In this document: positions 35,648-64,000 of the stretch, piece after piece
Numbering within the stretch: position 1 is the stretch's first letter
Layout: each line of letters starts with the position of its first letter
Program-made: the position numbers and the translations under genes
Notes under the pieces: generated by a model
Told to the model about the DNA's origin: nothing
Databases searched by the model: none
Seen by the model: only the letters and a program-made list of their open reading frames with translations
NCBI GenBank assembly: GCA_965216875.1
Contig: OZ244207.1
Location: forward strand, 7,072,001-7,136,000
Source: Rubripirellula sp.
GTDB taxonomy: Bacteria > Planctomycetota > Planctomycetia > Pirellulales > Pirellulaceae
Reading direction: 5' to 3'
DNA: 64,000 nucleotides

Positions 35648-37945
35648 ATGTCCGACCTCCCACCCGATGGAATCACGCCAAACTTGCGTTCAACTGCGCA
35701 GGGTGATGTGCCGCTGGCCGCCCAGTTGCCGGAAGGCAGGCAAACACCGCCAGCTGGTGGGGAAACGGTCGATCTGCGAAAGGGGCAACCTGAAGAGCCT
35801 TGCCAGGACGCGGGCCAAGTTCTGGAGCAACTTGAGCAAGTCGAAGCACTTGTCGAAACGGCCAACCAATCGCCCTCCGACTCTTCGGATGCCAATGGAT
35901 CGATCTCGGGAGAGACCGCGGACCCGATGATTGGTCGCCAGATCGCGAGCTACAAGATTTGCGAGCGGCTTGGCCAAGGTGGGATGGGGACGGTTTACCG
36001 CGCGTTTCAAACCGATCCGGTCAAACGCGATGTGGCGCTCAAGGTCTTAAGTCTCGATCTCGATGACCATCGCAATACCTCAACGCGGGCTCGCGAGCAG
36101 TTCATCAGCGAAGGCCAAGTGCTCGCCACACTCTCGCATCCTGAGATTGCAATGGTGTTGGATGCCGACGTGACCGAATCGGGTAATCCCTTTTTTGTGA
36201 TGGAATTGGTCGAGGGCAAGCGGCTGGATCAATTTGCCCGCGAACACAAACTCACCACACGCGACCGCATTCAATTGGTGCAGCGGATTTGTCGCGCCGT
36301 CCATCATGCTCATCAGCAAGGCGTTGTCCATCGAGATTTGAAACCGCCCAATATCTTGGTCGGCGGGACGCCCGAGTCGCCTGTGGTGAAAGTGATCGAC
36401 TTTGGAATCGCCAAGGTGCTTGAAGGCAACCAGATCCTTCCCGCGAGTGAAACGGTCGAGAATCGTCTGATTGGAACGCCTGGCTACATGAGTCCTGAGC
36501 AGGCGTCCTGTGGCGACATCGATGCGCGAGCCGATGTCTACTCGCTCGGCGCGATCCTCTTTCAATTGCTCTGCGATGCCCCGCCGATCAACCGACAAGA
36601 CACACCCTACGAATCTCTCGATGAATTGCTGCAATTGAGCAGGACTTTTTCGATACCACGACCAAGCCAACGATTGATGGGCAAGTCGCCAGAGCGGCGC
36701 GCTGAATTGGCATCAACACAGCAGTGCACGGTTTCGGAACTTGTGCGTCAATGCAAAGTCGATCTCGATTGGGTCGTATTGAAGGCGCTCGAAAAGGATC
36801 GGCGACAGCGGTACGCAACGGCGAACGATTTTGCAGATGACCTGCAACGTGTGCTTGACCAAGAACCGACACACGCCGCCGCGCCGACGTTGCTCTATCG
36901 CGCCCGCAAATTGGCGGCGCGGCATCCGATCTCGGCGATCGCAGGATCAGGCCTTCTCGTGGTCGCCGTATTGATCGCCACGCAGTGGAAACAGGCGCAA
37001 GACCAACATGCTGCGCAACACGCCTTCGCCATCCATCAGAGCGATCGATGGATGGATCAAGCAGACACACTGCGGCGATCGGTCGATGCAGGCGACGAGC
37101 GCCCTCAACACAAACTCAACCAAGCGACCACGCTCCTTGAACGGACGCGATTCTTGCTGGCCTTCGAGACGGATCTCCAGGAGGCCGAGCGACGACGAAA
37201 ACGGATTGCCGAACAGATTGAATCGGATGAGCGGGCGTTCGACTTTGTTGCCCAAGTCGACCATGCACGGCACCTGGCGTTCTTTCCCGAAGGGACCGAA
37301 CGCGGCTCCAGTGAACGCGATTCTGTTTCGCGTTCCTCCGTGACGCGGGCGCTGTGTGGATTTGGCGTGTATCCAGGCGAAACGAAGCCCGAGGTTGCGG
37401 TCGAGGCGTTCGGCGGCATGCCCTCGGGATTGGCCGAGCATGTCGTGGAAGCATTCGATTTTGTCATCGCGCAAACGCTCGCCAAACCTGGTCGGGATGT
37501 CGATGCTGGTTGGCACTACGAAGTGGTTCGTTGTCTCGACCGAAACGAAATCCGCAACGAACTTCGACGCGCGATCATCGCAAAGGATTGGGATGCGATC
37601 AACAGAGTGGCTCAGCTCGATTGCGATGGCGATCAATTGCCGTACAGTCGCATCCAGCTCGCAGTAGCGTTGAGCGAACTGGGAAAACGGTCCCACTCAA
37701 CCAACGTCTTGCGCAAGGCGGCTCAAACGCATCCAGAAAACTATTGGGTGAATTTGCATCTTGGCATTCATCTGGCAGAGGATGACGCGTCACGCGTAGA
37801 GGCGCTTCGGTACCTGACCGCCGCGGCCGCACTACGCCCCGATTCGCCCACACCGCCAGCTCATTTGGCAAACGTGCTCGAGTCGCTTGGACGGGACGAG
37901 GAAGCGAAGATGCAGCGCCACCGTGCGAAACGATTGCAGTTTTAG
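35648..37945 (+). CDS. Ser/Thr protein kinase with TM helix and C-terminal helical/TPR-like region
   Basis: LGQGGMGTVY, VALK, HRDLKPPN, DFG, GTPGYMSPE and DVYSLG all intact; TPR-like C-terminus (AAQTHPENYWVN..ALRPDSP). Confidence 0.93.
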   Translation: MSDLPPDGITPNLRSTAQGDVPLAAQLPEGRQTPPAGGETVDLRKGQPEEPCQDAGQVLEQLEQVEALVETANQSPSDSSDANGSISGETADPMIGRQIASYKICERLGQGGMGTVYRAFQTDPVKRDVALKVLSLDLDDHRNTSTRAREQFISEGQVLATLSHPEIAMVLDADVTESGNPFFVMELVEGKRLDQFAREHKLTTRDRIQLVQRICRAVHHAHQQGVVHRDLKPPNILVGGTPESPVVKVIDFGIAKVLEGNQILPASETVENRLIGTPGYMSPEQASCGDIDARADVYSLGAILFQLLCDAPPINRQDTPYESLDELLQLSRTFSIPRPSQRLMGKSPERRAELASTQQCTVSELVRQCKVDLDWVVLKALEKDRRQRYATANDFADDLQRVLDQEPTHAAAPTLLYRARKLAARHPISAIAGSGLLVVAVLIATQWKQAQDQHAAQHAFAIHQSDRWMDQADTLRRSVDAGDERPQHKLNQATTLLERTRFLLAFETDLQEAERRRKRIAEQIESDERAFDFVAQVDHARHLAFFPEGTERGSSERDSVSRSSVTRALCGFGVYPGETKPEVAVEAFGGMPSGLAEHVVEAFDFVIAQTLAKPGRDVDAGWHYEVVRCLDRNEIRNELRRAIIAKDWDAINRVAQLDCDGDQLPYSRIQLAVALSELGKRSHSTNVLRKAAQTHPENYWVNLHLGIHLAEDDASRVEALRYLTAAAALRPDSPTPPAHLANVLESLGRDEEAKMQRHRAKRLQF

Positions 37946-38116: not shown

Positions 38117-38119
38117 TGT

Positions 38120-39592
38120 TTAGTGTGACAGTCGGAGGTCGATGACGAATCGGGAGTCGAACCAGTTTCCGTCTCCCGCGGTGACGCCTCCGGCAAAGCC
38201 GAGTTCCCACAACCCGATGTCACTTTCCGGGCCGAGCACAAAACGTGCTCCCGGATAAATCTCGACGGCGGTCTTGCCGTCGACTCGACCGATCGTGGAT
38301 GGGTTGGCGATCGTTTCGCCGCCACTGAGGAACGAAAGTAGGCGCACCTCGAGTGTTGGGATGAATGCGAAGACATCGCTTTCGGCCGCGATCGTGCTGA
38401 CGCCCAAACCGGTCGTCAAAACTTCACCACTGGTGTCGGCGTTGCCTTTCAGCGGCACCCAATACTTCAGCTCGCCAAACCAATAGGTTTCGGGAGAGCG
38501 ACAGTGGCGAATCAAAATGCCAGGTTCGATCGCTGTGTTGCCTGTGCCAAGACCGCGACTCGTGTTCCCTTTGGCGATGTGTGTGCGAAAGATCGTCGCC
38601 ACTTTGGTGCGTTTTCCGTCAACGACAAGTCCCTGAGCACCGATCACGATATCACCCATGCCCGTTGTGTTGCCGGCCAACTCAGGATCAAGCGATCGCA
38701 TCGTGTACTCGGTGATTGCCATCACCCTTTCATTGCCCAGTGCCAAACGACAGTGAACGTCTTGGACGTTGACATTCGGATCGTGACCTGGACCGGCTGA
38801 ATCGGAGGCCCAAAAGTACTCGGCGCGGTCGGGCCGATTGAGCCCACTATCGATCTGGTAGCGGATTCCGTAGTGGGGCACCGTGATTGCCGTGTCGAGA
38901 ACGGTGGGGGCATACATGACTCGCTCATAACCAATCCCGCGGTCATGGGTTCGGCGACGTCGAAACCGCTTGCCGAGCATGAAGCGATCGAGGTCGGCTT
39001 GTCGAAACCGCTGGCGAAGTCGTCGCCAAGGTGACCAGTGGTTGGCAACCGATTGCCGTGTTCCCGAGGAGCAGTTTCCATCGCAACTGCCGATGCAGTC
39101 ACATGTCGCGGGCTGGGGGTGGAATGGTGTGTCGACTGCAAACCCTTGCGAAGGCGTCTCAATCGGAACGTTCACGCCCGGTGTCATCGGCTGCATGACT
39201 GAAGTTCCCGATCCGCTCGACATTTGCGGCTGAACTTTTTCGCCACTCGCGGGTGCGTCATTTGAAATTGGCCCATTCGGTTTCACACCCGCGGGCGGAG
39301 CGATTGATTCAACTTCGTTGCTAGCATTCGGTTTGATGCTAGCGTTGGCTGGTGGGTTGATCGCCGGTGCTGGCAGCGGCTCGATCGGCGGCGGCAGTGG
39401 TGTCGCCTCGATCAACTGAGGATCGGTGAGCGGAAGGATTGGCTCGGGCTTTGGCGGGGTTTCAGGCGGTGGTGTGTCGGCGCGTACCGATAGCGGTTCG
39501 CTTGCCGCTTTGTTGTTTTCCGATTGCGGAGCCGAACTTGCAGTGGAAGCGAGCAGCGTGGAGATCAGCAGGATCCAAGCTGTTCTGGTCAC
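38120..39592 (-). CDS. Exported protein: Pro-rich linker, Cys-rich patch and putative outer-membrane beta-barrel C-domain
   Basis: Signal peptide, PPPETPPKPEP linker, CDCIGSCDGNC. GMGDIVIG..GLGTG..EPG pattern resembles MetA-pathway/COG4313 barrels; amphipathic terminal strand SRFVIDLRLSH. Confidence 0.65.
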   Translation of the reverse strand: MTRTAWILLISTLLASTASSAPQSENNKAASEPLSVRADTPPPETPPKPEPILPLTDPQLIEATPLPPPIEPLPAPAINPPANASIKPNASNEVESIAPPAGVKPNGPISNDAPASGEKVQPQMSSGSGTSVMQPMTPGVNVPIETPSQGFAVDTPFHPQPATCDCIGSCDGNCSSGTRQSVANHWSPWRRLRQRFRQADLDRFMLGKRFRRRRTHDRGIGYERVMYAPTVLDTAITVPHYGIRYQIDSGLNRPDRAEYFWASDSAGPGHDPNVNVQDVHCRLALGNERVMAITEYTMRSLDPELAGNTTGMGDIVIGAQGLVVDGKRTKVATIFRTHIAKGNTSRGLGTGNTAIEPGILIRHCRSPETYWFGELKYWVPLKGNADTSGEVLTTGLGVSTIAAESDVFAFIPTLEVRLLSFLSGGETIANPSTIGRVDGKTAVEIYPGARFVLGPESDIGLWELGFAGGVTAGDGNWFDSRFVIDLRLSH

Positions 39593-39769
39593 ATTTTTGC
39601 TTAGTCGAACCTTTGCTTTGTGGTCTGTGGTTGTTTGACTTCGTGAAACGAAGCGCGTGCAACAGCTAGCGACATTATCGTCTGGAATTTGATTGGCAAA
39701 TTAGCTAATCTCCGCCTCGGTCGGCGATAGGAATTGGCCCTCTTAACGCCGAGATTGGAAAGGAATCTG

Positions 39770-41233
39770 ATGCAAAATCTCGCGGTACACTGGCACGAAG
39801 GACTGTTTCTTCGACCGCACCATCTGCAGGCATGGGATCGTCATTGGCACGAACACCAAACTGCGTCGGAGCGGTGGGAGAGTCCGTATAGCTATGGCGT
39901 TGCGAGTGTGCGCATCAATCCCGACGCGCTTGCTGCAGGTTTCTTTCAGCTCGATTCGATTCGCGCGAAGATGCCTGAAGGGACACTGGTCGAACTCAGC
40001 AGTGGCGAACCGACCGAGCGCGTTGACTTGCGTGGTGGTCTATCCGAAAACGATTCAACGGCCGCCTCGATTCCGATGCAGGGCGGACGCAGTGTCGATG
40101 TTTTCTTAGCGGTGCCGAGGTTGCAACTCGGCGCAGCAAACGTTGCTGAAAACGAAACAACAGCGGCGCGTTATCGCCCACTTCAGGTCCATGTTCCCGA
40201 TGAGTCGGACGGCTCGAGCGTGGAGCCAATTCTGTTTCGGCGGATGAACGTCAAGTTGATGCTGTCGACAGACGACTTGGCCGGCTACGACACACTGCGT
40301 ATCGCGCGGCTTCGACGCGGGACGACTGGTGGCGCGATCGCGGAACTCGATGATCAATACATTCCGCCACTACTTGATTGTGGTGCGTGGCCTCAGATGC
40401 GACACCGAATGTTGTCGCCGATCCACGACCTACTGATGCGCAAAGCAGAGACGTTAGCACAGCTTGTCAACGACCAGAACGCACAACTCGATGCCACTCA
40501 GCCGGGAGATTTGCAACGAATCTTGATGCTGCAAGCACTCAATCGCGGCACGGCGATTGCCGGTGTTTTGAACCAATCCGGAGGGCTGCATCCTTGGTTA
40601 GCTTATCTGGAGCTTGCACGCATCGCCGCCGAGCTCGACCTGTTCACACCCCAACGCGCGGCACAGCCGATCGCCCCTTACGACCACGATGCGCTCGGCC
40701 CCTTGTTCCATTCCTTACGAATGCGGATCGAATCACGCATCGCATCGATCGGCCAGAACGCGTACCAACAACGTCTGCTCATTGGATCGGGAATGGGCAT
40801 GCAGGTGACGCTCGATCCACAGTGGTTGATGCCCAATTGGCGATTGGTCTTGGGTGTACGACGCGGATCGATTTCCGTTTCGACGCTTGAGTCGCTCCTG
40901 GCGCCGGGACGTTTGGATTGGAAGTGGGGTAGCGCTCGTCAGGTGGAAATGTTGTACAGCCGCCGGGCCGCTGGGGTCTCACTGACGCGCATGCAAGATA
41001 TTCCTCGATCACTACCCTCGCAGTCTGATTGGACTTACTACGAGTTTGGCGAGCGCGGTCCCGCTTGGAACGATGTCCTTGAAAGTGGAACGATCGCGAT
41101 CCGTTTGCCTGAGGAGTACGTCGACAACCGCAGCGAGTTGACGGGGAATCAAACCTTGCGTGTTCGCATCGACGATGAAATCATGCCGTTGCAATTTGCG
41201 GTCTTCGCTTTGGATCAATCGGCTCAAGAATGA
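39770..41233 (+). CDS. tssK: T6SS baseplate subunit TssK
   Basis: VHWHEGLFLRPHHLQ, YGV, MPEGT, YIPPLL, HPWLAYLEL, YDHDAL. Confidence 0.93.
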   Translation: MQNLAVHWHEGLFLRPHHLQAWDRHWHEHQTASERWESPYSYGVASVRINPDALAAGFFQLDSIRAKMPEGTLVELSSGEPTERVDLRGGLSENDSTAASIPMQGGRSVDVFLAVPRLQLGAANVAENETTAARYRPLQVHVPDESDGSSVEPILFRRMNVKLMLSTDDLAGYDTLRIARLRRGTTGGAIAELDDQYIPPLLDCGAWPQMRHRMLSPIHDLLMRKAETLAQLVNDQNAQLDATQPGDLQRILMLQALNRGTAIAGVLNQSGGLHPWLAYLELARIAAELDLFTPQRAAQPIAPYDHDALGPLFHSLRMRIESRIASIGQNAYQQRLLIGSGMGMQVTLDPQWLMPNWRLVLGVRRGSISVSTLESLLAPGRLDWKWGSARQVEMLYSRRAAGVSLTRMQDIPRSLPSQSDWTYYEFGERGPAWNDVLESGTIAIRLPEEYVDNRSELTGNQTLRVRIDDEIMPLQFAVFALDQSAQE

Positions 41234-41868
41234 ACGTCGCAGCACTCGATCGATACGCAGATCGCTACCTCGAATCGGTGATGAACCTGTTCGAGCGGTT
41301 GCAGCGCGATGAGTCGGTCGACTGCCAGACGGTCCACAAACAGCTTGCGGACCAACTGCGCCGTGGGATCGGCGAAGTCTCTTTGCGTGAAGACTGGCAG
41401 CATGTCACCTACGCGCTGGCGGCACTCACCGACGAACTCATGGTCGAGTTGCCTTGGCCTGGGCGCAATTGGTGGAACGACAACGTCTTGGAAGCCAACT
41501 TGTTCGGAACACGCATGTGCAGTGAGCGGTTTTATGCCATCGCCAAAGAGACCATGCGTGATCGGCCCGAAGTCTTGCGAGTTTTCCACGATTGCGTGCT
41601 ACTTGGTTTTCGCGGCTTTTACGCTATGGAAGCTTCGGCACCGGCAATCGCATCGGAACTCGACGTCCCACCGACGCTCGAACAATGGGTGGCGGAGGTA
41701 CAGGATCGACTTTCCAATCCCGACACGCCCAAGTCGGCAATCCAACGCCACCAAAAACTCAGTGGTGCACCTCCGCTGCGAGGTGGACGCAATGCCGTTT
41801 GGTGGTCGGTCGCGTCGGGCACGTTGGTAGCGCTCAACATCACGATCTACACGTTATTGCTTCGTTAG
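41230..41868 (+). CDS. tssL: T6SS DotU/TssL inner-membrane protein (no OmpA extension)
   Basis: YALAALTDE, W..NVLEANLFG..ERFY, CVLLGFRGFY, C-terminal TM helix; overlaps the tssK stop. Confidence 0.9.
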   Translation: MNVAALDRYADRYLESVMNLFERLQRDESVDCQTVHKQLADQLRRGIGEVSLREDWQHVTYALAALTDELMVELPWPGRNWWNDNVLEANLFGTRMCSERFYAIAKETMRDRPEVLRVFHDCVLLGFRGFYAMEASAPAIASELDVPPTLEQWVAEVQDRLSNPDTPKSAIQRHQKLSGAPPLRGGRNAVWWSVASGTLVALNITIYTLLLR

Positions 41869-41889
41869 CAGGAAGAGATAGGTGTCGTC

Positions 41890-43599
41890 GTGGCTGACGA
41901 GCAACCGCCAACCCTTCAACAGAAACTTGCCGCCAAGCTTCGCTTTTCCATTGCGACGTGGGCATCGATCGTCGTCGGCGCGACACTCCTTGCGCTTTTG
42001 TTGGTGACGTGGGGACTGTATTCACTTGATGCGTCGCGCGTGGCGTGGGGCATCTACATGACCCCAACACGCGCGATCAGTCTGTTCCTACTCTGGTCGG
42101 CAGCGATCGGCGTGACTTATGTGACCGTTCGCGTATGGATGCACGACGTGCCACTGTCGGATCATCGCATCAGCAGCGGTTGGAACGCTGGCACCGATGT
42201 GTTGGCCAAGCACGGTGTCTCGATCACCGACCTGCCCTGCTTTGTCGTCCTGGGGTGTCCGTCGCGTTTTGAGCAGGACTTGCTTGTAGGTCAGCGCGGT
42301 TACAGTCCAGTGCATGACACGACCGAAGCGACACCGGCAATCGATTGGCATCTGACCAAGGAATACGTGCTGCTGTTTTGCCGCGATGTTGGCGTTTATG
42401 GACGCCTGCTTCAGCAGTCGGAGGCGTTGCTCCAGCAAACTGCCACGCAAGATCCGTCGGTGACATCAAGGCAATCAGACGCGGTTGCGGCGACACCAGT
42501 CGTCAACAACATCGGCGCGGAACAACCGGCGGGCGGTTCGGAGAGCCTTCGCGCCGTCGAGAGCGCCGGTGCACCCGACGCCGAGAATCAGCAGACAGAG
42601 ACAGCGCTACAGCCCGAAACCGCAGTGGCGACGGAAACGGCAATCGAACCTGCCGCGGAAGGTTCGCCAGAGGGTGAACCGGCCCCACAACCCGACGCGA
42701 CAAGCGAACTGCTGCGATCAATCGACCGGGCAAGTCAGCTGGTCAGCGACGCTCAGCGTGTTGATCACCATTGGAACGATGTCGGCCATCAAGACGGCGA
42801 CTTTGACCCCTCACTACTTTCGTCGGCTGAGACGGCCGAGTCCCAGGAACAGCTCGCACAGCTTTGCAATCGATTGCGAAGTCAACGATTTCCCAACTGT
42901 GCCATCAACGGCACGCTGGTGATGGTTGATTCGCGGTACTTGAGCCTGTCGGACAAAATGGCTCGCAACATGGGACATGCGATTCGCGATGACTTGCAAA
43001 TGCTAAGCAGTCAACTTGGCGCATCGAGTCCCGTGACCATGGTCGTTTGCGAAACCGAATCGGAAGCGGACTACGCCGAGTTGTTTCGCCGGACGGCACT
43101 CCAGCCAAACAACACGGATGACCCGTTGTTGGGGCAAGTGTTCGATCCCGAGACGACGCCCGACGCGCCGCAGTTGAGTACCCTTGCTGATCAGACGATC
43201 CAGCAATTGCAGAGCAAGATTCAAACACTCTTTCGAGTTCCGGGGACACTCGCCCAGCCGCGCAACCATCACCTCGTTCGGTTGTTGATTCGCGGTCGCA
43301 AGTGGCGTCAATCACTGCGTACGGTGATCGTCGAAAGTTGCAGCGACGATGACTCGAGTGATGACGGCCGATCGATCGTCAGTGGTCTGTTTATTGCAGC
43401 CCTGGGACGTTCGCCCATGGTCCGCCCGCATCTCGACGCGGTTTTCAAACGCATGCTGGCTCAACAGCATTTTGTCGGCTGGACACCGGCAGCACTGGCA
43501 CAGGAAAAGATGAGTCGCCGAGTCGTCACGACACTAATGGCGACCACCCTCATGCTTGTGATCGTGTTGTTGATCCAGTTGCTGTTGATTGCGTTTTAG
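41890..43599 (+). CDS. tssM: Short TssM/IcmF-like protein: N-terminal TMs + cytoplasmic domain + terminal TM only
   Basis: LPCFVVLG (cf. LPWYLVIG), IDWHLTKEYVLL (cf. CDWWFT.EAVL), RSQRFPNCAINGTLV (cf. R.RRPINGV), LGASSPVTMVV, VSGLFIAA. ORF ends right after a TM helix at 569 aa. Confidence 0.8.
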   Translation: MADEQPPTLQQKLAAKLRFSIATWASIVVGATLLALLLVTWGLYSLDASRVAWGIYMTPTRAISLFLLWSAAIGVTYVTVRVWMHDVPLSDHRISSGWNAGTDVLAKHGVSITDLPCFVVLGCPSRFEQDLLVGQRGYSPVHDTTEATPAIDWHLTKEYVLLFCRDVGVYGRLLQQSEALLQQTATQDPSVTSRQSDAVAATPVVNNIGAEQPAGGSESLRAVESAGAPDAENQQTETALQPETAVATETAIEPAAEGSPEGEPAPQPDATSELLRSIDRASQLVSDAQRVDHHWNDVGHQDGDFDPSLLSSAETAESQEQLAQLCNRLRSQRFPNCAINGTLVMVDSRYLSLSDKMARNMGHAIRDDLQMLSSQLGASSPVTMVVCETESEADYAELFRRTALQPNNTDDPLLGQVFDPETTPDAPQLSTLADQTIQQLQSKIQTLFRVPGTLAQPRNHHLVRLLIRGRKWRQSLRTVIVESCSDDDSSDDGRSIVSGLFIAALGRSPMVRPHLDAVFKRMLAQQHFVGWTPAALAQEKMSRRVVTTLMATTLMLVIVLLIQLLLIAF

Positions 43600-43636
43600 A
43601 GATACCGTTTGTCGCCACAGGCTCGCGGTTTTTGGG

Positions 43637-44301: not shown

Positions 44302-45369
44302 ATGGCTACGACGGAAACCACAATCGATCGTTTGCGATCGCCGGTTGCTTCCGATTCGCCTGCTGGAGCGAACCTGGAATACGATCCAAGGTTCGTTGAA
44401 ATGCAGCGGTTGGCCGAGGGTACGCGCGAACAACAATACGGCGAAACCATCGTACCGGCTCAACCGCCTGATTGGCGGACGATTGCCGAACTTGCAGAAC
44501 AGATCAGTGCTGAAACACGCGACCTGCGCGTCGCGACGGCGTTGATCGAATCAAAGTCGGCGACGGACGGATTGCCGGGTCTAGCCGAGGGGATGGATGT
44601 CCTCAAGCACTGGGTGTGTGACTACTGGGATAGTCTCCATCCTGAGCTCGACGAGGAAGATGGCCGCGATCCATTCGTTCGCATCAACGCACTGAATCAG
44701 CTTTGCCAGCCTGAGCGACTGCCAACCATCATCAACCAAATGACGCTTGTCGAAGCGCCACCGCACACGACCGTGTTGATGGAAGACGCGCTTTGCAACT
44801 TGGGCGATGCCAAACCTTCCACCGATGTCGAGCGTCCGACCGCATCGGAAGTCGAAGCCGCACTACTGACATTGACGGTCGAGGAGTTGCGTCAGCGATG
44901 TCAATGCACCGAAACCGCCGAGTCGTCGCTGATCGAGGTCTTGCAGTTCCTTGACGACGCGGCCGGTTCGGGAGCATGGGATGCATCGAACCTGGTCCAA
45001 CAACTCAGCAGTTGCAATGCAATCATGCAAAACCAACTTCATTCGCGATTGGCCGCATCCGATTCGGTCGTTGCGGCGGTCGCCAATGGGTCGACCAATG
45101 ATGGAGCCACGACATCTTGGGAAGATGTCAAAGTGGATCAATCGGTCCGCGACCTGAGCAAGATTCGCGTCGACACACGCGAGCAAGCTGCGGAAGTGCT
45201 CGAAGCCGCCATGAAGTACTTCGAGCGGTATGAACCGTCGAGTCCGGTGCCATTGTTGTTGCGCCGAGCGAAGCGATTGATCAACCAAGACTTTGTCGAC
45301 ATCCTGCGTGATCTAGCGCCGGATGCTTTGATTCAAGCAAAAAACCTGGCGGGAGAAATCGAATCGTAG
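44302..45369 (+). CDS. tssA: T6SS TssA (short ImpA-type)
   Basis: PAGANLEYDP.F, PPDW, TRDLRV, YWDSLHP, RINAL, YFERYEPSSPVPLLLRRAKRL. Confidence 0.93.
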   Translation: MATTETTIDRLRSPVASDSPAGANLEYDPRFVEMQRLAEGTREQQYGETIVPAQPPDWRTIAELAEQISAETRDLRVATALIESKSATDGLPGLAEGMDVLKHWVCDYWDSLHPELDEEDGRDPFVRINALNQLCQPERLPTIINQMTLVEAPPHTTVLMEDALCNLGDAKPSTDVERPTASEVEAALLTLTVEELRQRCQCTETAESSLIEVLQFLDDAAGSGAWDASNLVQQLSSCNAIMQNQLHSRLAASDSVVAAVANGSTNDGATTSWEDVKVDQSVRDLSKIRVDTREQAAEVLEAAMKYFERYEPSSPVPLLLRRAKRLINQDFVDILRDLAPDALIQAKNLAGEIES

Positions 45370-45952: not shown

Positions 45953-46034
45953 CCGGCGCGACTCGGACACGAGACGAACACACTTAGCCAACACAAAATA
46001 GCAAGACAATCACCTACCAATCGGGGACTCAAGG

Positions 46035-48104: not shown

Positions 48105-48113
48105 TGACGGACG

Positions 48114-48668: not shown

Positions 48669-48710
48669 GCAGCGAGACAGCCAAAGAAGAGTGCGGAAGA
48701 GACCAATCGC

Positions 48711-50612: not shown

Positions 50613-50655
50613 ACCGCAAATTGAAAGCACCGTTTTAGCAAAGCAGTTACGAATC

Positions 50656-50699
50656 ACCCTCCTGCTTGCGGGAGGTTTGGACGCAAAGTCTGGCGAGGG
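50656..50699. repeat. CCCTCC..GGAGG palindromic element (also at 24975-25017)
   Basis: CCCTCCTGCTTGCGGGAGGTTTGGACGCAAAGTCTGGCGAGGG versus CCCTCCCGCTTGTGGGAGGGTCGGACGCAAAGTCCGGGGAGGG. Confidence 0.8.
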
Positions 50700-50753
50700 C
50701 GCGAATTGTGCTCATCCGCGCAGTGTCGATGCCTGGCCCGAGAGAAACATGAG

Positions 50754-54756: not shown

Positions 54757-54773
54757 TAAGGGAACTGAGAATA

Positions 54774-55064
54774 ATGCCTCCAGCAGCTCGAGTTGGTGAC
54801 ATGCACACCTGCACGTCGGTCACGGGAGTCGTGCCGCACGTTGGTGGTGCGATCATTGGACCCGGAGCACCGACGGTGATGTTGGAAGGGATGCCGGCGG
54901 CCGTTGTCGGCGATGAAGCGAGCTGCAACGGGCCGGCCGACGCACTCACGATGGGATCGGGAACGGTCATGATCGAAGGCAAACCTTCGGTCAGGGTTGG
55001 AGACGAAACGGCTCATGGCGGCTCGATTGCAGCGGGCGCGCCGACGGTGATGGTCGGCGACTGA
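54774..55064 (+). CDS. PAAR domain spike-tip protein (96 aa)
   Basis: MPPAARVGDMHTC, PHVGG, PAAVVGD, PSVRVGD.TAHGG; AAGGGA SD upstream. Confidence 0.95.
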   Translation: MPPAARVGDMHTCTSVTGVVPHVGGAIIGPGAPTVMLEGMPAAVVGDEASCNGPADALTMGSGTVMIEGKPSVRVGDETAHGGSIAAGAPTVMVGD

Positions 55065-55097: not shown

Positions 55098-58000
55098 ATG
55101 CGACGGTCGCGAAACACGAACGACCACCAAAGTTGGAGACCTATCCAGCGTTGGCGACAAACCGCGGCAAGTGCCAAGCGGTTAATGATCGCGCGCGCCG
55201 CGCTTGCCACGTTCTTGGGGATCTTCTTGGTCGGTTTCTTGGTGATCGCGTTTCGTCCGATGGTTCGACCAAACGCGGTCTTGGTCACGATCGGACCCAA
55301 GCTTGAAACCGACCTTAGCGAGTCAGTGCAGGTCGCGAACCAATCCATCCAGTCCATTTGGAACGCGACCGAGCCATTGCACTCGATCGAGGCCGCGTCG
55401 CCATTGGTGTTGGGCGACGCCCAGCATGTCAATCAATTCGTTGCCAACCACACACGGCGCGGACCGCGGTTGATCTACCTTGCCGGCGTCGCAAGTCCGG
55501 TCGCTGGCAAAGCGATGTTGGTATCGGGGCAATCGGGCGGCGCGACGGGCCAGTCTAGAGACGCGATGGGCCAATCGCTTGACGTTGGCGAGGTGATTCA
55601 AAGTTGTGCCAAGTCAATGCAGCCTTCGGTGATCGTCGTTGATGCCGTTCAGTCGCGACGATTGAAAGTCGGCGAGACGCCTGAGTTGACGGCGCTCGAA
55701 TTCGTGCGGAGTGTTAGCGAATCGATCGAACAACAAGGGCAAGCTCCCATTGCTGTCGTCGTCTGTCAAAGCGAACCAGAGCAACAGAGATCTCAAGCGA
55801 CAGGAACGCGATGCTCCGAGACTCTGGTCGCCGCACTCGGTAAGGCTGCCGACAACAAGTTGCCTGCCACGGACAAGGATGGAGACGGCGTGGTGACCGG
55901 CGGCGAAATGATTGACAAGTTGACTGCCCTGCCACGTCGCCGAGCCTACGCAGGAATTCCCCGCTTGCTGAGCAATCGGCCTCCGAACTATTGGCATGGC
56001 GTCTCGCTTTGGCCCGTTCATTCGATCGATTCGTCATCGACCGAAACCGCTCAATCGATCGCAGAGGTTGGAGCGAAGCCGACCGACGAAGAATCGAATG
56101 CCGACTCGGCGCCGCAACAGGCCGATGAGCTTCTGCAGGTCGAAGTCACCGCGCCGACACTCGCGCTTGCGATCAAGCTCCGCAAACTTGGCTACGACAC
56201 TCGTCGCTCGGAGGAATGCCAAGCGATCACGGATCAGTTGCGTGTCTTTTTGGATGATGACGCAGTCGAGGCTGATGTCATCAAGTGGTTAGCAGAACCG
56301 AAGATTGCAGACGCGAGATGGGACGAGCTTGTTTGGATGCGGTTTGTTTGCGGGCAATCCCATTCTTGGCCGCTCAAACAATCGTTGATCCAATGCCGCG
56401 TGCTCGCCAATCGCGTTGCCGTTGAAACATCGAAGCACAAATTCCTTGCTCAGCGCGTCGGCAAGGCTCAGTGGATGCGACTCGACGCGGAACGAAGTTT
56501 GGCCAGTCCCGTTCGCGGCAATCACCTTGAATACGCTGCTGGCTCCGTCAGCGATGCTCTAGCGAGGTTCCGGTTGATTCTTGACGATGCGATGGTGATT
56601 CAACAGGCCGAAAGAATCGTCGAACGCGATCGTCGCCGCGCCGAAGAGTTGCTTTCGATGCCAGTTCGAGCAAAGTCGCCACGATATGACTACGTTTGTC
56701 AGCGGCTCGCCGATGTCGTGGGCTTGCAAACTTGCTTGAATCGTGACCATGAAGACATGATTCGCGACTGTCGCCTGCTGGTGGAATCCATTCAACGTCG
56801 CAGTGACATGCGGCAAACGGAAGTCGCCCGAACCGTTCGCACCGCAACCGACTCGGCACCCCAAGGAAGTGACGTCGACAGCAACTTCCAGCTTTTCGAG
56901 ACGACGCAAATACGTGTCGCACGCTCGGCGCTGGTGACGGAACTCTTGACCGGGAACAAGATCGGAGCTGTCGAAAAGAAGTCATGCGAGGCAACGCGAT
57001 GTCTTGCTCACCCCGAAGCACATTTCGACCAAGTGGCATCGGCGGTGGTTGATTTTCGCAGTGCCATTGGCCAAGCAATGCGGCATCGGGGGCGGATGGT
57101 CGCACGGTCGAACCAGCAACGTGCACTCGACAAGCTGCGCCGCATCGCCTTGGATGCCCAGCGGTATAGCGTCGATGCAACCCGCACTCAACGCGACTTG
57201 CAAATTGGCAACGCCCGGCGCGCGATCCGCATCGCCGCCAAGCTTGACGAAACAATCATTGCCAACCTTTCCAGCGGCCCCGAAATCGATGTCCAGCTCC
57301 ACGGGTCGCTGGCTCGCACCGACAATGCCTGGCTTGATGTCACCGTTCGTCATCAAACGCAAACGCCCGCGCCGGGTTGGATTGAGATTGAATACGACAG
57401 CGCGGTGGTTGCGGTCGCGCCGATCACGGCGCCAGCGGTCCGAGCGTCGCGGATCGGCGAGGCTCGGTATCAGACGGTGATCCAACAGTCCCGACAGAAT
57501 GTCGATCCGAATCATGCAAGCGACGATCGTTTGCAACAGGTTCGAATTGATTTGCAACGAATCGGCGGCGCGTACGAATCAGCGGCGATCAACGTTCGTT
57601 GGGTGACCAAGGAAAACGTTTATCGGCGATCCGTGCCGCTCGAGCTGCCACTGCCGCAACTCGCTACCGTCGCCTTGGGAATGATCGGCGAGAATGCGGG
57701 TGACACCCAAGTTTGGCGTATGCGTGCCAATGACGATCGATTTCAAACATTGAACCTTCGTGCCACCGATGACTCGAGTGACACGCTTGCGGTTCGTTTG
57801 CTCGCCTGGAAAACGCCAGGTATGAAACCTCCGTCGACCTTGTCGTCACGGGCGGCCAATGAGTGGTTGTCTCAAGTCGCACCACCGGTTGAACTGGCCA
57901 AACAAGAATCGGTATTCGTCAAAGCGGGTGAATATGTGCCGGTCCGCTTCAAACCGCACAAGCTGAAACCCGCAGCGGAACCGATCACGGTGGGTACATT

Positions 58001-59465
58001 GCTGTGCGAAGTGACCGATCCAGTTGCCAAACGAGTTCAGTACATTGATCTGGGCCCCGCCGTTGTTCGTCCTTCGGCAGTGATCACACCCAAGGTTGCG
58101 TTCGACGCTGCCGCACGCCGTTTAACGCTTTCGATGGACGCACACGCGAGCAGCGTCGTGGGTGGGCCTAAGACTTGGGTTCAAGTCGAAGTGCGTGATG
58201 CGTCTACCAATCAATTGATTGCCGAAGACGATGTGGTGCTCCAGCGCGGCGGCCAGGTTGCCAAGGTTTACAGTACAGCGGCAAGCAATGGTCGCCCGGT
58301 CCGAATGCGTTTGAAAGTCGACGGCTGGCCAAGCGGGTATGTGTACGACATTGATACGGCGCGTTCCGATTCCGGCGTCGCATCGGCTGCTGCCAAGCCG
58401 CGTGTCGCCATCGTCGATCCCGCTCGAGAGCTTGTTATCCGTTCAAAGACGGGACAGATCGATGCGCATGTAGCGGTCGACCTGAGTGATCGATGGTTTC
58501 GCTACGGCCAAGACGAGATCGCGGTCGGACTCGATTTGAACCATGATCGCTACCTGCGCGACGAGCCAACCGTGTCATCCAAGCATCCTGTCTCAATTCA
58601 GTTCGCTTGGGCAGGAGTGAATGAACAAGGACAACTTGGAATCAGTAACCGCGTCGGGCACGTGCAACTTCATTTGCCCGTGCGTGGTCAAGCTCGCAAC
58701 CAACGGACGCAATTGATCGCGCAGTTGCGCCGAGGCGCGGAGATCACGTGGAGCCAACCGGTGACGGTCGTTTTCGATGATGAGCCGCCGGTGATCGAGG
58801 ACGTTCAAATCACGTCGGCGATTCCCGCGTCACTGGCCGGGCCACTGCAGATTCGGGTGAGCGTTGACGACGCTGGCTTGAGCGGCGCTGCGGTGGTTCG
58901 AGCCGGATGGGCAACGCTCGGTCAGACCGAATTTACGCCTGAAGTGACAGCAATGGAGGCCCAGCGGATGCAGGATGATCGGTGGGCGGTCGATGTCCCG
59001 GTTGATGGACTTGTGCCAGGCGTCCACACATTGCTAGTACAGGCAACGGACCGCGCCGGGAATGTTGGGAAGACAAAAAGCCTTGCGGTGCAGTTGTATT
59101 CCGCCGAGCAGTTGGCGGAACTGAAAAGCCAGCAAACAACGGCTGTTCACGGCAAGGTTGCCTACGTGAAACGTCCGTTAAAAGGGATCACGGTCAAACT
59201 GCGAAAAGTGATTCCGCCGAACGAGGAATCAGAAGGCGACGCCGATCCACCAGCAGCCAACACGGCACTCGAAACGGTCAGTGACGAGGTGGCTCATCAA
59301 GCCACGACGGCGGTCGATGGCTCGTTTTGGATCAAGGATGTTCGTGCGGGAGATTACGAGCTGCAGGTCGAAGGGCTCTATCGAGGGATGCGGCAACGCA
59401 AGACGATCAAGATCGCCGTGAAACCGCCGCAACCTGCTTCAGTCGATACGATTCGCGTGGATTGA
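55098..59465 (+). CDS. Large membrane-anchored protein: TM, inactive caspase-like domain with EF-hand loop, helical region, Ig-like domains, C-terminal carboxypeptidase-regulatory-like domain
   Basis: TM FLGIFLVGFLVIAF; LIYLAGVA, VIVVDAVQS, AAD..DKDGDGVVTGGEM; DDEPPVI..HTLLVQATDRAGN; VHGKV..TTAVDGSFWIKDV.AGDYEL. Confidence 0.75.
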   Translation: MRRSRNTNDHQSWRPIQRWRQTAASAKRLMIARAALATFLGIFLVGFLVIAFRPMVRPNAVLVTIGPKLETDLSESVQVANQSIQSIWNATEPLHSIEAASPLVLGDAQHVNQFVANHTRRGPRLIYLAGVASPVAGKAMLVSGQSGGATGQSRDAMGQSLDVGEVIQSCAKSMQPSVIVVDAVQSRRLKVGETPELTALEFVRSVSESIEQQGQAPIAVVVCQSEPEQQRSQATGTRCSETLVAALGKAADNKLPATDKDGDGVVTGGEMIDKLTALPRRRAYAGIPRLLSNRPPNYWHGVSLWPVHSIDSSSTETAQSIAEVGAKPTDEESNADSAPQQADELLQVEVTAPTLALAIKLRKLGYDTRRSEECQAITDQLRVFLDDDAVEADVIKWLAEPKIADARWDELVWMRFVCGQSHSWPLKQSLIQCRVLANRVAVETSKHKFLAQRVGKAQWMRLDAERSLASPVRGNHLEYAAGSVSDALARFRLILDDAMVIQQAERIVERDRRRAEELLSMPVRAKSPRYDYVCQRLADVVGLQTCLNRDHEDMIRDCRLLVESIQRRSDMRQTEVARTVRTATDSAPQGSDVDSNFQLFETTQIRVARSALVTELLTGNKIGAVEKKSCEATRCLAHPEAHFDQVASAVVDFRSAIGQAMRHRGRMVARSNQQRALDKLRRIALDAQRYSVDATRTQRDLQIGNARRAIRIAAKLDETIIANLSSGPEIDVQLHGSLARTDNAWLDVTVRHQTQTPAPGWIEIEYDSAVVAVAPITAPAVRASRIGEARYQTVIQQSRQNVDPNHASDDRLQQVRIDLQRIGGAYESAAINVRWVTKENVYRRSVPLELPLPQLATVALGMIGENAGDTQVWRMRANDDRFQTLNLRATDDSSDTLAVRLLAWKTPGMKPPSTLSSRAANEWLSQVAPPVELAKQESVFVKAGEYVPVRFKPHKLKPAAEPITVGTLLCEVTDPVAKRVQYIDLGPAVVRPSAVITPKVAFDAAARRLTLSMDAHASSVVGGPKTWVQVEVRDASTNQLIAEDDVVLQRGGQVAKVYSTAASNGRPVRMRLKVDGWPSGYVYDIDTARSDSGVASAAAKPRVAIVDPARELVIRSKTGQIDAHVAVDLSDRWFRYGQDEIAVGLDLNHDRYLRDEPTVSSKHPVSIQFAWAGVNEQGQLGISNRVGHVQLHLPVRGQARNQRTQLIAQLRRGAEITWSQPVTVVFDDEPPVIEDVQITSAIPASLAGPLQIRVSVDDAGLSGAAVVRAGWATLGQTEFTPEVTAMEAQRMQDDRWAVDVPVDGLVPGVHTLLVQATDRAGNVGKTKSLAVQLYSAEQLAELKSQQTTAVHGKVAYVKRPLKGITVKLRKVIPPNEESEGDADPPAANTALETVSDEVAHQATTAVDGSFWIKDVRAGDYELQVEGLYRGMRQRKTIKIAVKPPQPASVDTIRVD

Positions 59466-59473: not shown

Positions 59474-60280
59474 ATGAGCGACACGAAAACCAATCACAGG
59501 ACTCACCCGCTTCGGCGTCATCAGGTTTGCATGCTGGTCGCTGCCGTCGCGCTGTTGTGTTCGGGGTGCGCCGGATTCGCAAGGCTTGATCGTGAAGCGA
59601 ACCCACACGCCCACCTTCCGCAAGGCCATCTGGTTGGCGTGAAACAGCCGATGACACTGCCCCGGTTTTTGGGGATCGACGCGTGCGCTCGCAAACTCGG
59701 TTCCTGCGGGCGCGGCGCTGTGCTTTATTGTCAAGCGACGGGTGAGAAGATTGCGGCCGTGGTTCCTGCGCTCGAGCCACCCGCGCCGCCACTGCCGATG
59801 TCGCATCCCGCCAACGCCGAGTCGCCATCGCCGGCAGTCGCTGCCGCACACAAGATGAAAAAAGCCAAGGCCGCCAAGGCCGCCAAGATCAAAGCTGTTG
59901 CGTTCTTGGGGAGCGAAGGTTGTCTTGAAAACCCGCTCGTCGAAGAAGGCATCCTCGCCGCACTCGATGACATTTCAGCCGACGTTCGGATCGCTGCGGT
60001 CGAGGCGGTCGTCAAATCGGCCCAGCGTGGTTGCGACGACAATTGCGTTGAGTGTTCGGACGGTTGCTGTAGCGAGCTGATTCGTTGCAAGTTGACCGCG
60101 ATGGTTTTTGAAATGCGAGACAACGGGTGCTATGTCGAGCCGAGTTCCAAGGCGCGGCGACTGGCACGTTTGGCACTCGATCTGTGCGGCGGCCCCATCG
60201 ATTGCTCACCGGTAACCGTTGTCGATGGCCCCACCGAAGTCCCACCGCCCGCCGTGATGAAAGCGGTCGGAAGCGAATAG
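59474..60280 (+). CDS. Cys-rich putative lipoprotein with HEAT-like repeat
   Basis: Hydrophobic stretch ending LCSG-C (lipobox-like), AALDDISADVRIAAVEAV, EPSSKARRLARLAL, many Cys; begins 8 nt after the previous stop. Confidence 0.75.
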   Translation: MSDTKTNHRTHPLRRHQVCMLVAAVALLCSGCAGFARLDREANPHAHLPQGHLVGVKQPMTLPRFLGIDACARKLGSCGRGAVLYCQATGEKIAAVVPALEPPAPPLPMSHPANAESPSPAVAAAHKMKKAKAAKAAKIKAVAFLGSEGCLENPLVEEGILAALDDISADVRIAAVEAVVKSAQRGCDDNCVECSDGCCSELIRCKLTAMVFEMRDNGCYVEPSSKARRLARLALDLCGGPIDCSPVTVVDGPTEVPPPAVMKAVGSE

Positions 60281-60995: not shown

Positions 60996-61649
60996 ATGAC
61001 TTCCAAAGCTGAAAATCGCCACACGAAACTGAAGAAGGTTGGTAACGTCGGGACGACGGTTGCCAAACACGCGATCTCGGTCACGACGCGTGTTTCCGAT
61101 ATCAAAGAGCTGGGTGTGATCGCCGCGGGCGCGGGGGCTGCCGTCTCGGCCACGGGTGGTGGTTTGGTCATCGCGGGCGGTGTCTTGCAAGTGATTGGCA
61201 TCGGCAAGAACAGCGTTGCCGCGGTCAAGTCACATAATCACATGAAGGGACTCGAAGACATCCAAGCGCGCGCCTCATCGCTAAACGTTTCCTGCAACGG
61301 CGAAGCGATGAAGCATCAGGCGATTGTGGCGAGCATCCTGCCCTACTTGATCGAACAAAAGAAAACCAAGCGGGATCGTCGCGTGCAGAAAGCGATTCCT
61401 TGCGTTGGGTTGCTCGAATCGATTCGCGCGGTTGGCAATTGGGCTTGGAAGAAGCACAAAGGTGAGCTTGGAAAGAAACGCTATGAGTTCGCGGAAATCC
61501 TCGCGTCCCATCTGACGGTAAGTGGTTGCGCATTGGCCGCCGAAATCGTTGCGGAACTGTACGACTTCGAATCGATGGTGTGGTTGCAATCGGCTTGCGA
61601 GCCTGGACTGGCGACCGAATTGATTGCTTCGAAGATGAAGTCGGTTTAA
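60996..61649 (+). CDS. Hypothetical protein with Gly/Ala-rich hydrophobic segment (candidate effector)
   Basis: No signal peptide; LGVIAAGAGAAVSATGGGLVIAGGVLQVIGIG segment; Lys-rich helical remainder. Confidence 0.7.
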   Translation: MTSKAENRHTKLKKVGNVGTTVAKHAISVTTRVSDIKELGVIAAGAGAAVSATGGGLVIAGGVLQVIGIGKNSVAAVKSHNHMKGLEDIQARASSLNVSCNGEAMKHQAIVASILPYLIEQKKTKRDRRVQKAIPCVGLLESIRAVGNWAWKKHKGELGKKRYEFAEILASHLTVSGCALAAEIVAELYDFESMVWLQSACEPGLATELIASKMKSV

Positions 61650-61654: not shown

Positions 61655-64000
61655 TTACCGTGTTGCCGACACTTCTGCAACTTCCGCATGAATGCTGCCG
61701 ACGATCGGCTGGTTCTTTTCGGTACGCATCGCACTCTGTTTCATTTCGGAAACCGGGCACACCCAGAACGTGACTCGGTCTTGAGTCGCTGTTTGATCAC
61801 GAGTGGGCTCTTGCGTGTGGCTGAGTTTGCGACGGAAGAAAGTGTGCACACTTGTGTGCCGCTTGGCGTCGTACCAATGAGTCTCGTCGCAGTGGTCGTC
61901 GTTCCCTGCTTTTACGATCAGCATTGAATCGGGCGTTGCACTGGCCGCGTATCGCAGGCGTAGTTGGAACCCGTCTTGGATCGGTTCGATTCGATACTCT
62001 ATGCCCGCAAGCGACGCGAGTGGTTTGTATTGATCGTTGCGGGTTTCGAGTTCGATCGTCATGCCGGTTGGTCGCTGGTCGCAAGTCCAAGCCTTCACTT
62101 CGTATTGCAACGCCTCTTCAGGCCAACGGCGACATTCAAATTGGCCAACGGGACAGACCGTCTCGTCAAGCCAAGCGACCGACCCGGTTCGGTAGACCGA
62201 AGTCGCATCGTTGACCCATGAATGGGCATTCTTTTGCGGTGTGACTTCGAGCCAAATCAGCTCGGGACGCCGCGCTACACGATGGTCTGTTCGTTGCAGC
62301 GAAAGTTGAAGACTGAGGTTGTTTCCGATGAGCTTGGGATGATGGATGGCCAACCGTCGCATCGAAGGTGTTTCGCTGGGATGGACCAACATCGAATCGG
62401 CGGACCAGCCCGAAAGGTAACGCTCCGCGATCGGCATGCCGCCAGCAGGGTCGGTATGCAATCGAATGTGGCTACCGGGTGAAACCGGCGCGATGATGGA
62501 TTGCGTCCCAATCGAAATGTTGACCAGCTCGTTTTCTTGTTCGATTCCGCTCACGGTGATGGTCTTGCCAATTGCGGCGGTGCTCCGCGAAGTGTTGGTT
62601 TCGACTTGGTAGGCGTGGGCGCTTGCAATCTGTTGTAGTTGGCCAAGCAAGTGATTCGCTTCGGTTGCGTCAACGCAAGCCTGCCCGCCAGTTCCTCGCG
62701 CGATCGCGTCAAACTGCTCGATCGCCTCGCGGTCGTTCTTGTCCAGTCCAAAGCCGATCACATGGACTCGAACATGGTTGGCGTTGGCGAGATTGACAAC
62801 CGAATCGAGAGAGACGTCGGCGTCGGGTCTCGGGTTGAATTGATAGTTCTTGCCGTCCGACACAACAACAACATCTTTGATGACGCCATCACCCAATCGA
62901 GTGACATCGTTGATGGCGGTGGTGATGGCAAGCAGCAGCGGAGTTTGCCCCCAGGGGGCGGTCGCAGCCAGGTGCTGACGCGCCTGGCTGAATTGTTCCG
63001 CGGCGAAGCGACCGGTTGGCAATGCAACTTCGACGTCTTCGAAGGGTTGCAGCGTGGGCGGGAATGGGAACTGTTTGTGGTAACGATTCTGAAGGATGAG
63101 TTCTTTGTCTTTGCCAAGTGCCATGCGATGGCCATAAAGGACGACGCCCACGTCGGTGTTGTCGAGCGTCAGTTGCCGGAGCATTTCGATCATGGCGGAT
63201 CGCGCGGCATCAAGCTTCGTTGCACCGAGTCCCGTCGCATGGCGGGCGATCTCGGGGTTGACCGGATCGTTCATCGATGCGGAGCAATCAAACACGAACG
63301 TGACGGCGCGACCGCGGGCAACGCCATCGACAAGGGTGACCTTTGCCGACCGGGGCGCAGCACGATTGTTGGCCGAAACGCCTCGCGAAGTGTCGGTAAT
63401 CGTGACGGGAGCCCAATAGGTGTGGCCGCGAAATCGGAAGGCTGCCTCGGCAGGGTCGCCGTTCCAAGACTTCATCGCGATGTGAGATTTGCGCGGCGCG
63501 TCGTCTTTATCCGACACGGCAAGACTGCGACCATCGGTCGTGTTGTGTTGGGTGACCGTCGCAATTCCCAACCCGACTGGCACTCGGCCTGAATTGGCTG
63601 CCAACTCAATCGAGATTTTGGCAGCTTTCACACCGCCGTCTGAATAGGAGGGGTCACTCGATGCCGACAACGAGAGACCGTGATCGGCACCCTTTACGTG
63701 CTCATTGAGTTGTTTTTCGATGTTTCGCTTGCGCGACGTCCATTGGTTGGAGTCAGGCAGGATCGCGTCGGCGGCATCGAGGAGTCGCGTTGCGGCGACG
63801 GCAAAGTGAGGTTTGTCAGCATCGCGGTCGGTGCGCCAAAAACCTTCCAATGCAACTTCGGCGCGGTCAGCCAATCGGAAGCGGCGCATTCGGTTTTGCG
63901 ATTGCGCGACGGTTTCGGAAAAGGAGCCATCGAGAGTGATGGCAACAACCCGTCGCCATTGCTGTGACGCAAGGTGGACTTCGATTTCAGGCGATGCCAA
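61655..64000 (-). CDS. Large von Willebrand factor A (vWA) domain protein (5' part outside window)
   Basis: MIDAS motif FVFDCSASM, GQTPL, VVVSDG, VHVIGF; ORF open to the window edge. Confidence 0.88.
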   Translation of the reverse strand: MASPEIEVHLASQQWRRVVAITLDGSFSETVAQSQNRMRRFRLADRAEVALEGFWRTDRDADKPHFAVAATRLLDAADAILPDSNQWTSRKRNIEKQLNEHVKGADHGLSLSASSDPSYSDGGVKAAKISIELAANSGRVPVGLGIATVTQHNTTDGRSLAVSDKDDAPRKSHIAMKSWNGDPAEAAFRFRGHTYWAPVTITDTSRGVSANNRAAPRSAKVTLVDGVARGRAVTFVFDCSASMNDPVNPEIARHATGLGATKLDAARSAMIEMLRQLTLDNTDVGVVLYGHRMALGKDKELILQNRYHKQFPFPPTLQPFEDVEVALPTGRFAAEQFSQARQHLAATAPWGQTPLLLAITTAINDVTRLGDGVIKDVVVVSDGKNYQFNPRPDADVSLDSVVNLANANHVRVHVIGFGLDKNDREAIEQFDAIARGTGGQACVDATEANHLLGQLQQIASAHAYQVETNTSRSTAAIGKTITVSGIEQENELVNISIGTQSIIAPVSPGSHIRLHTDPAGGMPIAERYLSGWSADSMLVHPSETPSMRRLAIHHPKLIGNNLSLQLSLQRTDHRVARRPELIWLEVTPQKNAHSWVNDATSVYRTGSVAWLDETVCPVGQFECRRWPEEALQYEVKAWTCDQRPTGMTIELETRNDQYKPLASLAGIEYRIEPIQDGFQLRLRYAASATPDSMLIVKAGNDDHCDETHWYDAKRHTSVHTFFRRKLSHTQEPTRDQTATQDRVTFWVCPVSEMKQSAMRTEKNQPIVGSIHAEVAEVSATR

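Follow-up and report, generated by a model that had tools for sequence, protein, structure and literature searches.

A type VI secretion locus in Rubripirellula with a truncated TssM and a candidate replacement for the periplasmic half of the membrane complex

We analysed a window of 64,000 nucleotides (nt) from Rubripirellula sp. (contig OZ244207.1, positions 7,072,001 to 7,136,000 of the forward strand), which lies in a closed single-contig genome of 8.26 Mb and 99% completeness, and within it the locus of a type VI secretion system (T6SS). Its tail and baseplate set, as the initial annotation had read it from the letters, together with tssL, is borne out by Pfam: tssK, L, M, A, B, C, hcp, E, F, G, vgrG and PAAR are all confirmed at 39734-55064, and BLASTP against the 72,912 six-frame open reading frames (ORFs) that make up the search space of the genome finds every T6SS gene in a single copy. 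On the forward strand, the gene for TssK (39734..41233, PF05936) is followed by those for a short form of TssL whose hydrophobic C-terminus is the protein end (41230..41868, DotU PF09850), a short TssM (41890..43599, PF14331), TssA (44302..45369, ImpA_N, with TIGR03363 above cut-off), the sheath subunits TssB and TssC (45428..47534, PF05591 and PF05943), Hcp, TssE, TssF and TssG (47625..51803, Pfam), a VgrG without C-terminal effector extension (51811..53808, Pfam and NCBIfam) and PAAR (54705..55064, PF05488).

Four accessory genes flank this core as had been described at the outset, apart from boundary details. A predicted 12-stranded outer-membrane beta-barrel is encoded on the reverse strand next to tssK (38120..39592). 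Behind PAAR lie, on the forward strand, the genes for a giant protein of 1455 amino acids (aa; 55098..59465) and for a Cys-rich HEAT-like lipoprotein (59474..60280), and on the reverse strand the gene for a second giant with a vWA domain, whose C-terminal part falls in the window (61655..64000). The lipoprotein start is most likely the ATG at 59474, giving 268 aa, and the vWA giant measures 1520 aa, its gene extending 2.2 kb beyond the window end to G000:C1:7138217. All four proteins begin with envelope-targeting N-termini.

TssM has 569 aa, as initially annotated, and lacks a periplasmic domain. Two N-terminal helices (hydrophobic segments 21-39 and 62-80) precede the cytoplasmic domain, and a third helix (549-567) forms the C-terminus, with only two residues after it; since the protein stops at this third helix, no periplasmic domain follows. 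Pfam recognises IcmF-related_N only. The cytoplasmic domain aligns to that of full-length TssM (HHalign 98%), and in alignments the Walker A motif of long TssMs (GxxGxGKT) is degenerate in the short form. A PDB sequence search returned nothing credible for the short TssM. In two relatives, G492 (L143:10911-15680) and G318 (L144:5275-10054), tssM is itself split: a 202-aa N-terminal gene with two helices sits between tssL and the large giant, the three being consecutive and co-oriented, and the C-terminal gene lies beside tssK and the barrel.

The missing tssJ, first noted for the neighbourhood of tssK, proved to be missing genome-wide. Profile searches of the whole genome for TssJ/SciN, IcmF_C and ClpV gave nothing above cut-off, with an E. 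coli control positive for IcmF_C and controls from E. coli and two genomes of other planctomycete classes (G297, G152) positive for TssJ; neither a full-length tssM nor a tssJ is found elsewhere in the genome. A profile built from six TssM periplasmic domains found nothing among the 72,912 ORFs at E<=10; its reach is limited, as four long TssMs kept out of the profile were recovered by it but the ones in G187 and G172 were not. From the tssM stop to tssA there are 702 nt here and 86-321 nt in four relatives, too little room for a hidden periplasmic domain, and a 170-aa ORF at 43773-44285 was set aside because it has no Pfam match and is not seen in relatives. We also considered a split or relocated TssM periplasmic domain and rejected it, since the profile is null genome-wide and the giants are not TssM-like by HHalign.

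The absence of clpV, likewise noted initially, holds for the genome but does not mark the subtype. Nothing scores above the ClpV cut-off (best 824 bits vs 885), and the two best matches read as ClpB and ClpC. Most relatives, in contrast, have ClpV after tssG, where nothing lies between 51803 and 51811 here; a Clp ATPase is encoded in 25 of the 40 core stretches covered, and all six that were tested score 1,265-1,288 on the ClpV model. We therefore rejected ClpV loss as a subtype marker. ClpV is absent genome-wide here and in all five of the closest relatives, and these also lack the TagJ/ImpE gene that in others stands between hcp and tssE (47625-48668 here); the joint absence is a subclade loss. 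At G000:C1:6228775-6237276, three tandem long ORFs give partial ClpV-model matches through AAA domains.

The short TssM is well supported as a lineage-wide subtype. Our family sample comprised 201 genomes, 79 with TssC and 122 without, so that about 40% of the genomes have a T6SS, nearly all of the short-TssM form; named relatives belong to Rhodopirellula, Rubripirellula, Pirellula, Blastopirellula and Anatilimnocola, from which the class is taken to be Planctomycetia. A short-TssM profile matches 76 of the 78 other TssC-bearing genomes (G377 and G399 gave no tssM match with it), and the matched frames do not exceed 782 aa, with the sole exception of 1045 aa in G337. By a hydropathy threshold, a hydrophobic segment ends TssM in 20 of 21 complete short ORFs, and it does so in all seven further unsplit short ORFs. 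TssM frames of 545-580 aa also occur in three genomes of a second family of the class, and one of 556 aa in a fourth. IcmF_C and TssJ are each found in 1 of the 78 other TssC-bearing genomes, both in G337, which has a long TssM with IcmF_C (L150:401-3307, G337:C263) besides its short TssM, and a TssJ on another contig; either the genome has an additional system of canonical type or contigs were wrongly binned. In another relative, G414 (L035-L036), many frames are broken, affecting tssC, F, G, M, clpV and the two giants, through either decay or assembly error.

The subtype had originally been proposed for planctomycetes at large, and this scope did not hold: in other classes TssM measures 1,050-1,500 aa, and TssJ is present where checked, with the gene order tssJ-K-L-M in G297 and G152. 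IcmF_C matched in 21 of 62 VipB-positive genomes of these classes, mostly in frames of 1,050-1,380 aa. As the Pfam IcmF_C model misses some long TssMs, it is the end of the ORF, not the missing match, that provides the direct evidence for the short form.

TssK and TssC of these systems have different phylogenies. Both trees were made on the same 31 rows (21 systems with short TssM, and canonical ones from planctomycetes of other classes, 6, and from proteobacteria, 4), restricted to systems with TssK available, by quick search under LG+G4. The references are few, G297 and G187 sit on long branches, and TssK and TssC of G454 and G446 were paired from separate stretches. The TssKs of short-TssM systems, the one in the window included, form one side of a branch with full support in the SH-like approximate likelihood ratio test (SH-aLRT 100). 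Their TssCs fall into three lineages mixed with canonical systems, and grouping them together is rejected by the approximately unbiased test (p-AU 7.7e-25). The same pattern appears in pairwise identities, which for the window TssC are 67% to Burkholderia and 45-51% to five family members, and for the window TssK 24% to Burkholderia and 31-39% to five family members. With TssK in one clade and TssC in three lineages, tail and envelope modules probably have different histories, and one envelope module likely serves several tails. A divergent second TssC-like gene of 570-640 aa lies near vgrG or the giants and lipoprotein in G313, G497, G437, G319 and G399 (L083:1-1755, the region of L023:11306-13259, L153:6184-7929), in some cases weakly TssB-like; the Rubripirellula genome itself has none.

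Both giants share a domain directly after one N-terminal hydrophobic helix (HHalign 98.5%). It matches Peptidase_C14 (PF00656) weakly, in 4 of 16 and 1 of 14 members and mostly below the Pfam cut-off. The caspase motif D-x-C is present in 0 of 32 giant rows, with a Cys one position earlier in eight of them, and a His-Gly motif is found in 11 of 17 vWA giants; the same profile detects a D-A-C caspase in the Rubripirellula genome (E 2e-11). Because the canonical catalytic Cys is absent from all 32 rows, the caspase-like domain is read as inactive, although activity is still conceivable. The giants are predicted to be membrane-anchored, and their short, positively charged N-termini suggest that most of each protein is periplasmic. 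After the caspase-like domain and a long middle part, the 1455-aa giant ends in Ig-like domains and the other giant in the vWA domain, whose metal ion-dependent adhesion site (MIDAS) motif is intact (DxSxS, T and D conserved). A conserved PGLEPKPP segment is a candidate ligand of this metal site. The PDB sequence search gave nothing credible for the caspase-like domain, and the ESM Atlas no usable match for one homologue of the 1455-aa protein. ORF 1323670 of the genome was examined as a giant paralogue and rejected as an Ig-repeat protein.

The lipoprotein combines a signal peptide and lipobox with 16 Cys and HEAT-like sequence, and its ESM Atlas matches are only HEAT-like hypothetical planctomycete clusters. 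The idea that it is a diverged TssJ was rejected, as a comparison found no resemblance. Long forms with a C-terminal rotamase domain of the PpiC type (peptidyl-prolyl isomerase, PPIase) account for 6 of 29 homologues (L081, L084, L090, L091, L092 and one more). The barrel protein has a signal peptide and a low-complexity N-terminal half; its AlphaFold2 (AF2) model contains 12 long strands at high confidence behind this low-confidence half. Foldseek matches the model best to FapF (5o68, E 2e-8) and also to 4rl8 (E 5e-5), at 11-13% identity, and Pfam, NCBIfam and PDB sequence searches gave no match. A barrel of such size is far narrower than the Hcp tube, so the 12 modelled strands likely make it too narrow as a needle exit. 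What was initially called a putative outer-membrane barrel thus stands as a predicted 12-stranded barrel, but probably not as the needle's way out, and it was recovered in only 47 of the 79 TssC-bearing genomes. We identified no protein that could make an outer-membrane pore of needle size.

Profile searches of the 201 family genomes tie the accessory proteins to the T6SS. The lipoprotein is found in 75 of 79 genomes with TssC vs 3 of 122 without, the vWA giant (E<=1e-10) in 76 of 79 vs 13 of 122, the 1455-aa giant (E<=1e-14) in 67 of 79 vs 5 of 122, by a profile that also picks up the vWA giant N-terminus and generic caspases, and the barrel in 47 of 79 vs 14 of 122, in a search that scored only 6 candidates per genome. 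Three TssC-negative genomes with strong accessory matches (G410, G459, G466) are fragmented assemblies of 82-89% completeness. We give no p-value for co-occurrence, as related genomes are not independent samples. In a phylum sample of 301 genomes, 69 of them VipB-positive, the lipoprotein profile matches exactly six VipB-positive genomes of the same class and none of the other 295, among them 13 VipB-negative genomes of the class and 63 VipB-positive genomes of other classes; having been built from eight family members, it could let distant homologues escape. Genes in the order giant-lipoprotein-vWA giant are found repeatedly, even where tssBC lies at a distance, this trio operon adjoins vgrG-DUF6931-PAAR or barrel-tssKLM, and the barrel gene adjoins tssK, tssA or the lipoprotein gene in relatives. 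Neighbourhoods across the family therefore show short TssM and the accessory families together, the barrel less universally, and the accessory genes are conserved near T6SS loci.

Three further genes lie within or beside the locus. A Ser/Thr kinase with a TPR-like end (35648..37945, forward strand, Pkinase E 6e-44) has an orthologue that adjoins barrel-tssK in G316 and is not at that place in G360, G495, G480 or G406; its link to the T6SS is uncertain. Between vgrG and PAAR, a protein with FHA-like and DUF6931 regions (53821..54756, forward strand, Pfam) is a possible spike adaptor, and its gene recurs directly after vgrG in relatives. A 217-aa orphan with a Gly/Ala-rich hydrophobic segment (60996..61649, forward strand), encoded between the lipoprotein and vWA giant genes, has seven matches including itself, sporadic in occurrence and near the accessory trio in G316, G360, L102 and L121; it is a candidate cargo.

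Taken together, gene content and domain architecture make it rather probable, in our estimate, that the missing periplasmic half of the complex has been rebuilt from the two pseudo-caspase giants and the Cys-rich HEAT lipoprotein, with the barrel as a likely extra anchor. The baseplate would dock on the short TssL and the TssM cytoplasmic domain through the lineage-specific TssK, and both giants would insert by their one N-terminal helix beside TssL/TssM. Their inactive caspase folds could then provide a platform for assembly on the side that faces the periplasm, while the long middle parts and the Ig and vWA ends would reach the cell wall and the outer membrane. The vWA metal site and the lipoprotein might supply the distal contact that is made elsewhere by TssJ, and the barrel might pin or help to assemble the distal end without being the needle exit. 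Contraction would drive Hcp-VgrG-PAAR outward, and in this subclade either ClpB would recycle the sheath or no recycling would take place. The envelope module would be inherited as a unit, carrying tails of at least three T6SS lineages. Of the subtype first proposed, the retained TssL and TssM cytoplasmic part and the conserved accessories stand, and the formation of a complex remains a proposal. In its fullest form, the model describes a third membrane-complex architecture: a socket of its own TssK, short TssL/TssM, giants, HEAT lipoprotein and FapF-like barrel, bridging a variable periplasm between inner and outer membrane, with tails of at least three T6SS-i lineages grafted on. We advance this version tentatively, at slightly less than even confidence.

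Several observations weigh against the rebuilt complex. No resemblance of the giants to TssM is detectable (HHalign probabilities of 0.05 and 0.2), and as the lipoprotein is not TssJ-like either, the assigned role rests on gene-content complementarity. Co-occurrence cannot tell a structural from a regulatory or adhesive role. For the 1455-aa giant, moreover, the 1e-14 cut-off was picked after the scores were seen, and at E<=1e-5 the counts become 78 of 79 vs 37 of 122. The barrel was not recovered in 32 of 79 TssC-bearing genomes, G399 has the trio without a detected tssM, and among 29 homologues of the lipoprotein at least 8 have, by eye, a signal peptide without lipobox. The PPIase domains of the long lipoprotein forms indicate a foldase role. 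Finally, vWA and caspase-family genes stand beside canonical T6SS loci of two proteobacteria, a caspase-family gene in Leisingera (L130:11654-13171) and, following a kinase, a vWA gene in Tistrella (L133:41330-41356).

The main rival, which we consider unlikely, is an anchor in the inner membrane only, consisting of TssL and short TssM and firing through wall and outer membrane without a channel, perhaps at existing membrane contact sites. The trio would then act in sensing, positioning or folding, needed by the machine or useful to it but no structural part. The intact MIDAS of the vWA domain, the PPIase/SurA domains on long lipoprotein forms, the kinase and FHA-like genes in the locus and the vWA/caspase-family genes beside canonical T6SSs all fit this reading, as do the press-stud-like membrane contacts that the accessible text of one study describes for planctomycetes (PMC5394234). 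It fits less well that the giants have only short N-terminal tails before the helix and no signalling domain, and that no trio was detected where planctomycete systems have a long TssM. Accessories with a regulatory role usually have a patchy distribution, whereas those of the subtype are near-universal. That no needle-sized outer-membrane pore was identified is explained neither by this rival nor by the rebuilt complex. It would be expected if the machine stays within the outer membrane and injects into the enlarged periplasm (PMC5394234) of the cell itself or targets that cell's inner membrane, with the trio receiving or limiting the needle, and the locus, with no Rhs gene, a VgrG without extension and single-copy Hcp, VgrG and PAAR, is consistent with such self-directed action. 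We nevertheless regard it as improbable, given candidate cargo beside PAAR in related loci (for example a lipase in G429), a sheath close to canonical export systems, and an outer-membrane barrel and lipoprotein linked to the locus.

Two other readings were considered. The Ig-like and vWA domains resemble adhesin parts, and the best structural match of the barrel secretes amyloid subunits, so the giants could be surface adhesins or fibre subunits exported or displayed via the FapF-like barrel and co-inherited to hold target cells. Folded, anchored multi-domain proteins of 1,500 aa would be unlikely substrates of a 12-stranded barrel, however, the barrel occurs in fewer genomes than the giants, and the missing TssM domain stays unexplained; we rate this reading highly improbable. 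A prematurely interrupted tssM is reportedly known from Citrobacter rodentium, and one relative, G414, has the many broken frames noted above; on this reading the locus might have decayed, or tssM might be read through by frameshifting, its neighbours being incidental. This is largely refuted, and we give it hardly any credence: the tssM-tssA gap is short in both the window and the four relatives, homopolymer runs of seven or more are absent, the periplasmic-domain profile, with its limited reach, found nothing in the genome in any of six frames, and the TssM end point is kept across the family.

If the rebuilt complex is real, such a hybrid, with the cytoplasmic docking half retained and the periplasmic half swapped, would show at which point the membrane complex is divisible and that tails evolve separately from envelope modules, and it would give inactive caspase folds a structural role. 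With a T6SS in 79 of 201 genomes, nearly all of this form, the finding bears on competition among these environmental bacteria.

In T6SS-i, the channel and outer-membrane anchor consist of the TssM periplasmic domain and TssJ. The tail, baseplate, TssA, TssK, TssL and TssM cytoplasmic domain of our system are homologous to those of T6SS-i; the best PDB match of TssC is 5n8n, the P. aeruginosa H1 sheath, and the sheath comes closest to the H1-like group of T6SS-i. It departs from T6SS-i in having no TssM periplasmic domain, no TssJ, a degenerate TssM Walker A and a separate TssK clade and, in this subclade only, no ClpV and no TagJ. The barrel is like FapF/COG4313 in its predicted fold, unlike them in sequence family and T6SS context. 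The giants share a caspase-like domain with C14 peptidases, but they lack the catalytic dyad, are membrane-anchored and are predicted to be periplasmic.

The system is apparently undescribed so far. For Rhodopirellula baltica, a T6SS locus was recorded in 2009, with no comment on such envelope parts in the accessible text (PMC2660368), and the accessible text of a 2026 review of T6SS accessory factors does not contain 'planctomyc', 'caspase' or 'von Willebrand' (PMC13584744). Among the matches listed in the literature searched, most subscription papers and supplements lying outside it, none was on the membrane complex of a T6SS from planctomycetes. In a TssJ-less T6SS of Acinetobacter, accessory proteins (TsmK) compensate and TssM has a C-terminal linker or extension, according to the accessible part of the same review (PMC13584744). 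Our system also does without TssJ but, unlike the Acinetobacter system as portrayed there, its TssM has no periplasmic part at all and ends at helix 3.

In Bacteroidota, the T6SS-iii complex contains, by the accessible text of PMC10781749, periplasmic proteins that have a single helix and PKD domains, together with a lipoprotein bearing a vWA domain. Like T6SS-iii as outlined there, our system lacks the canonical periplasmic channel and has single-helix proteins, Ig-like and vWA domains and a lipoprotein (PMC10781749), the vWA domain being carried by a membrane-anchored giant here and by the lipoprotein there. None of the Pfam families TssN-R matched the four accessory proteins, and TssN and TssR had no match in the genome, in searches that gave none in control genomes either. 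To our knowledge, the only described wholesale replacement of channel and outer-membrane anchor is that of Bacteroidota. Unlike T6SS-iii (TssNOPQR), which lacks TssL/TssM homologues, our system has kept both; it is likely a variant of T6SS-i and not a member of T6SS-iii, though likely similar to the latter in the periplasm.

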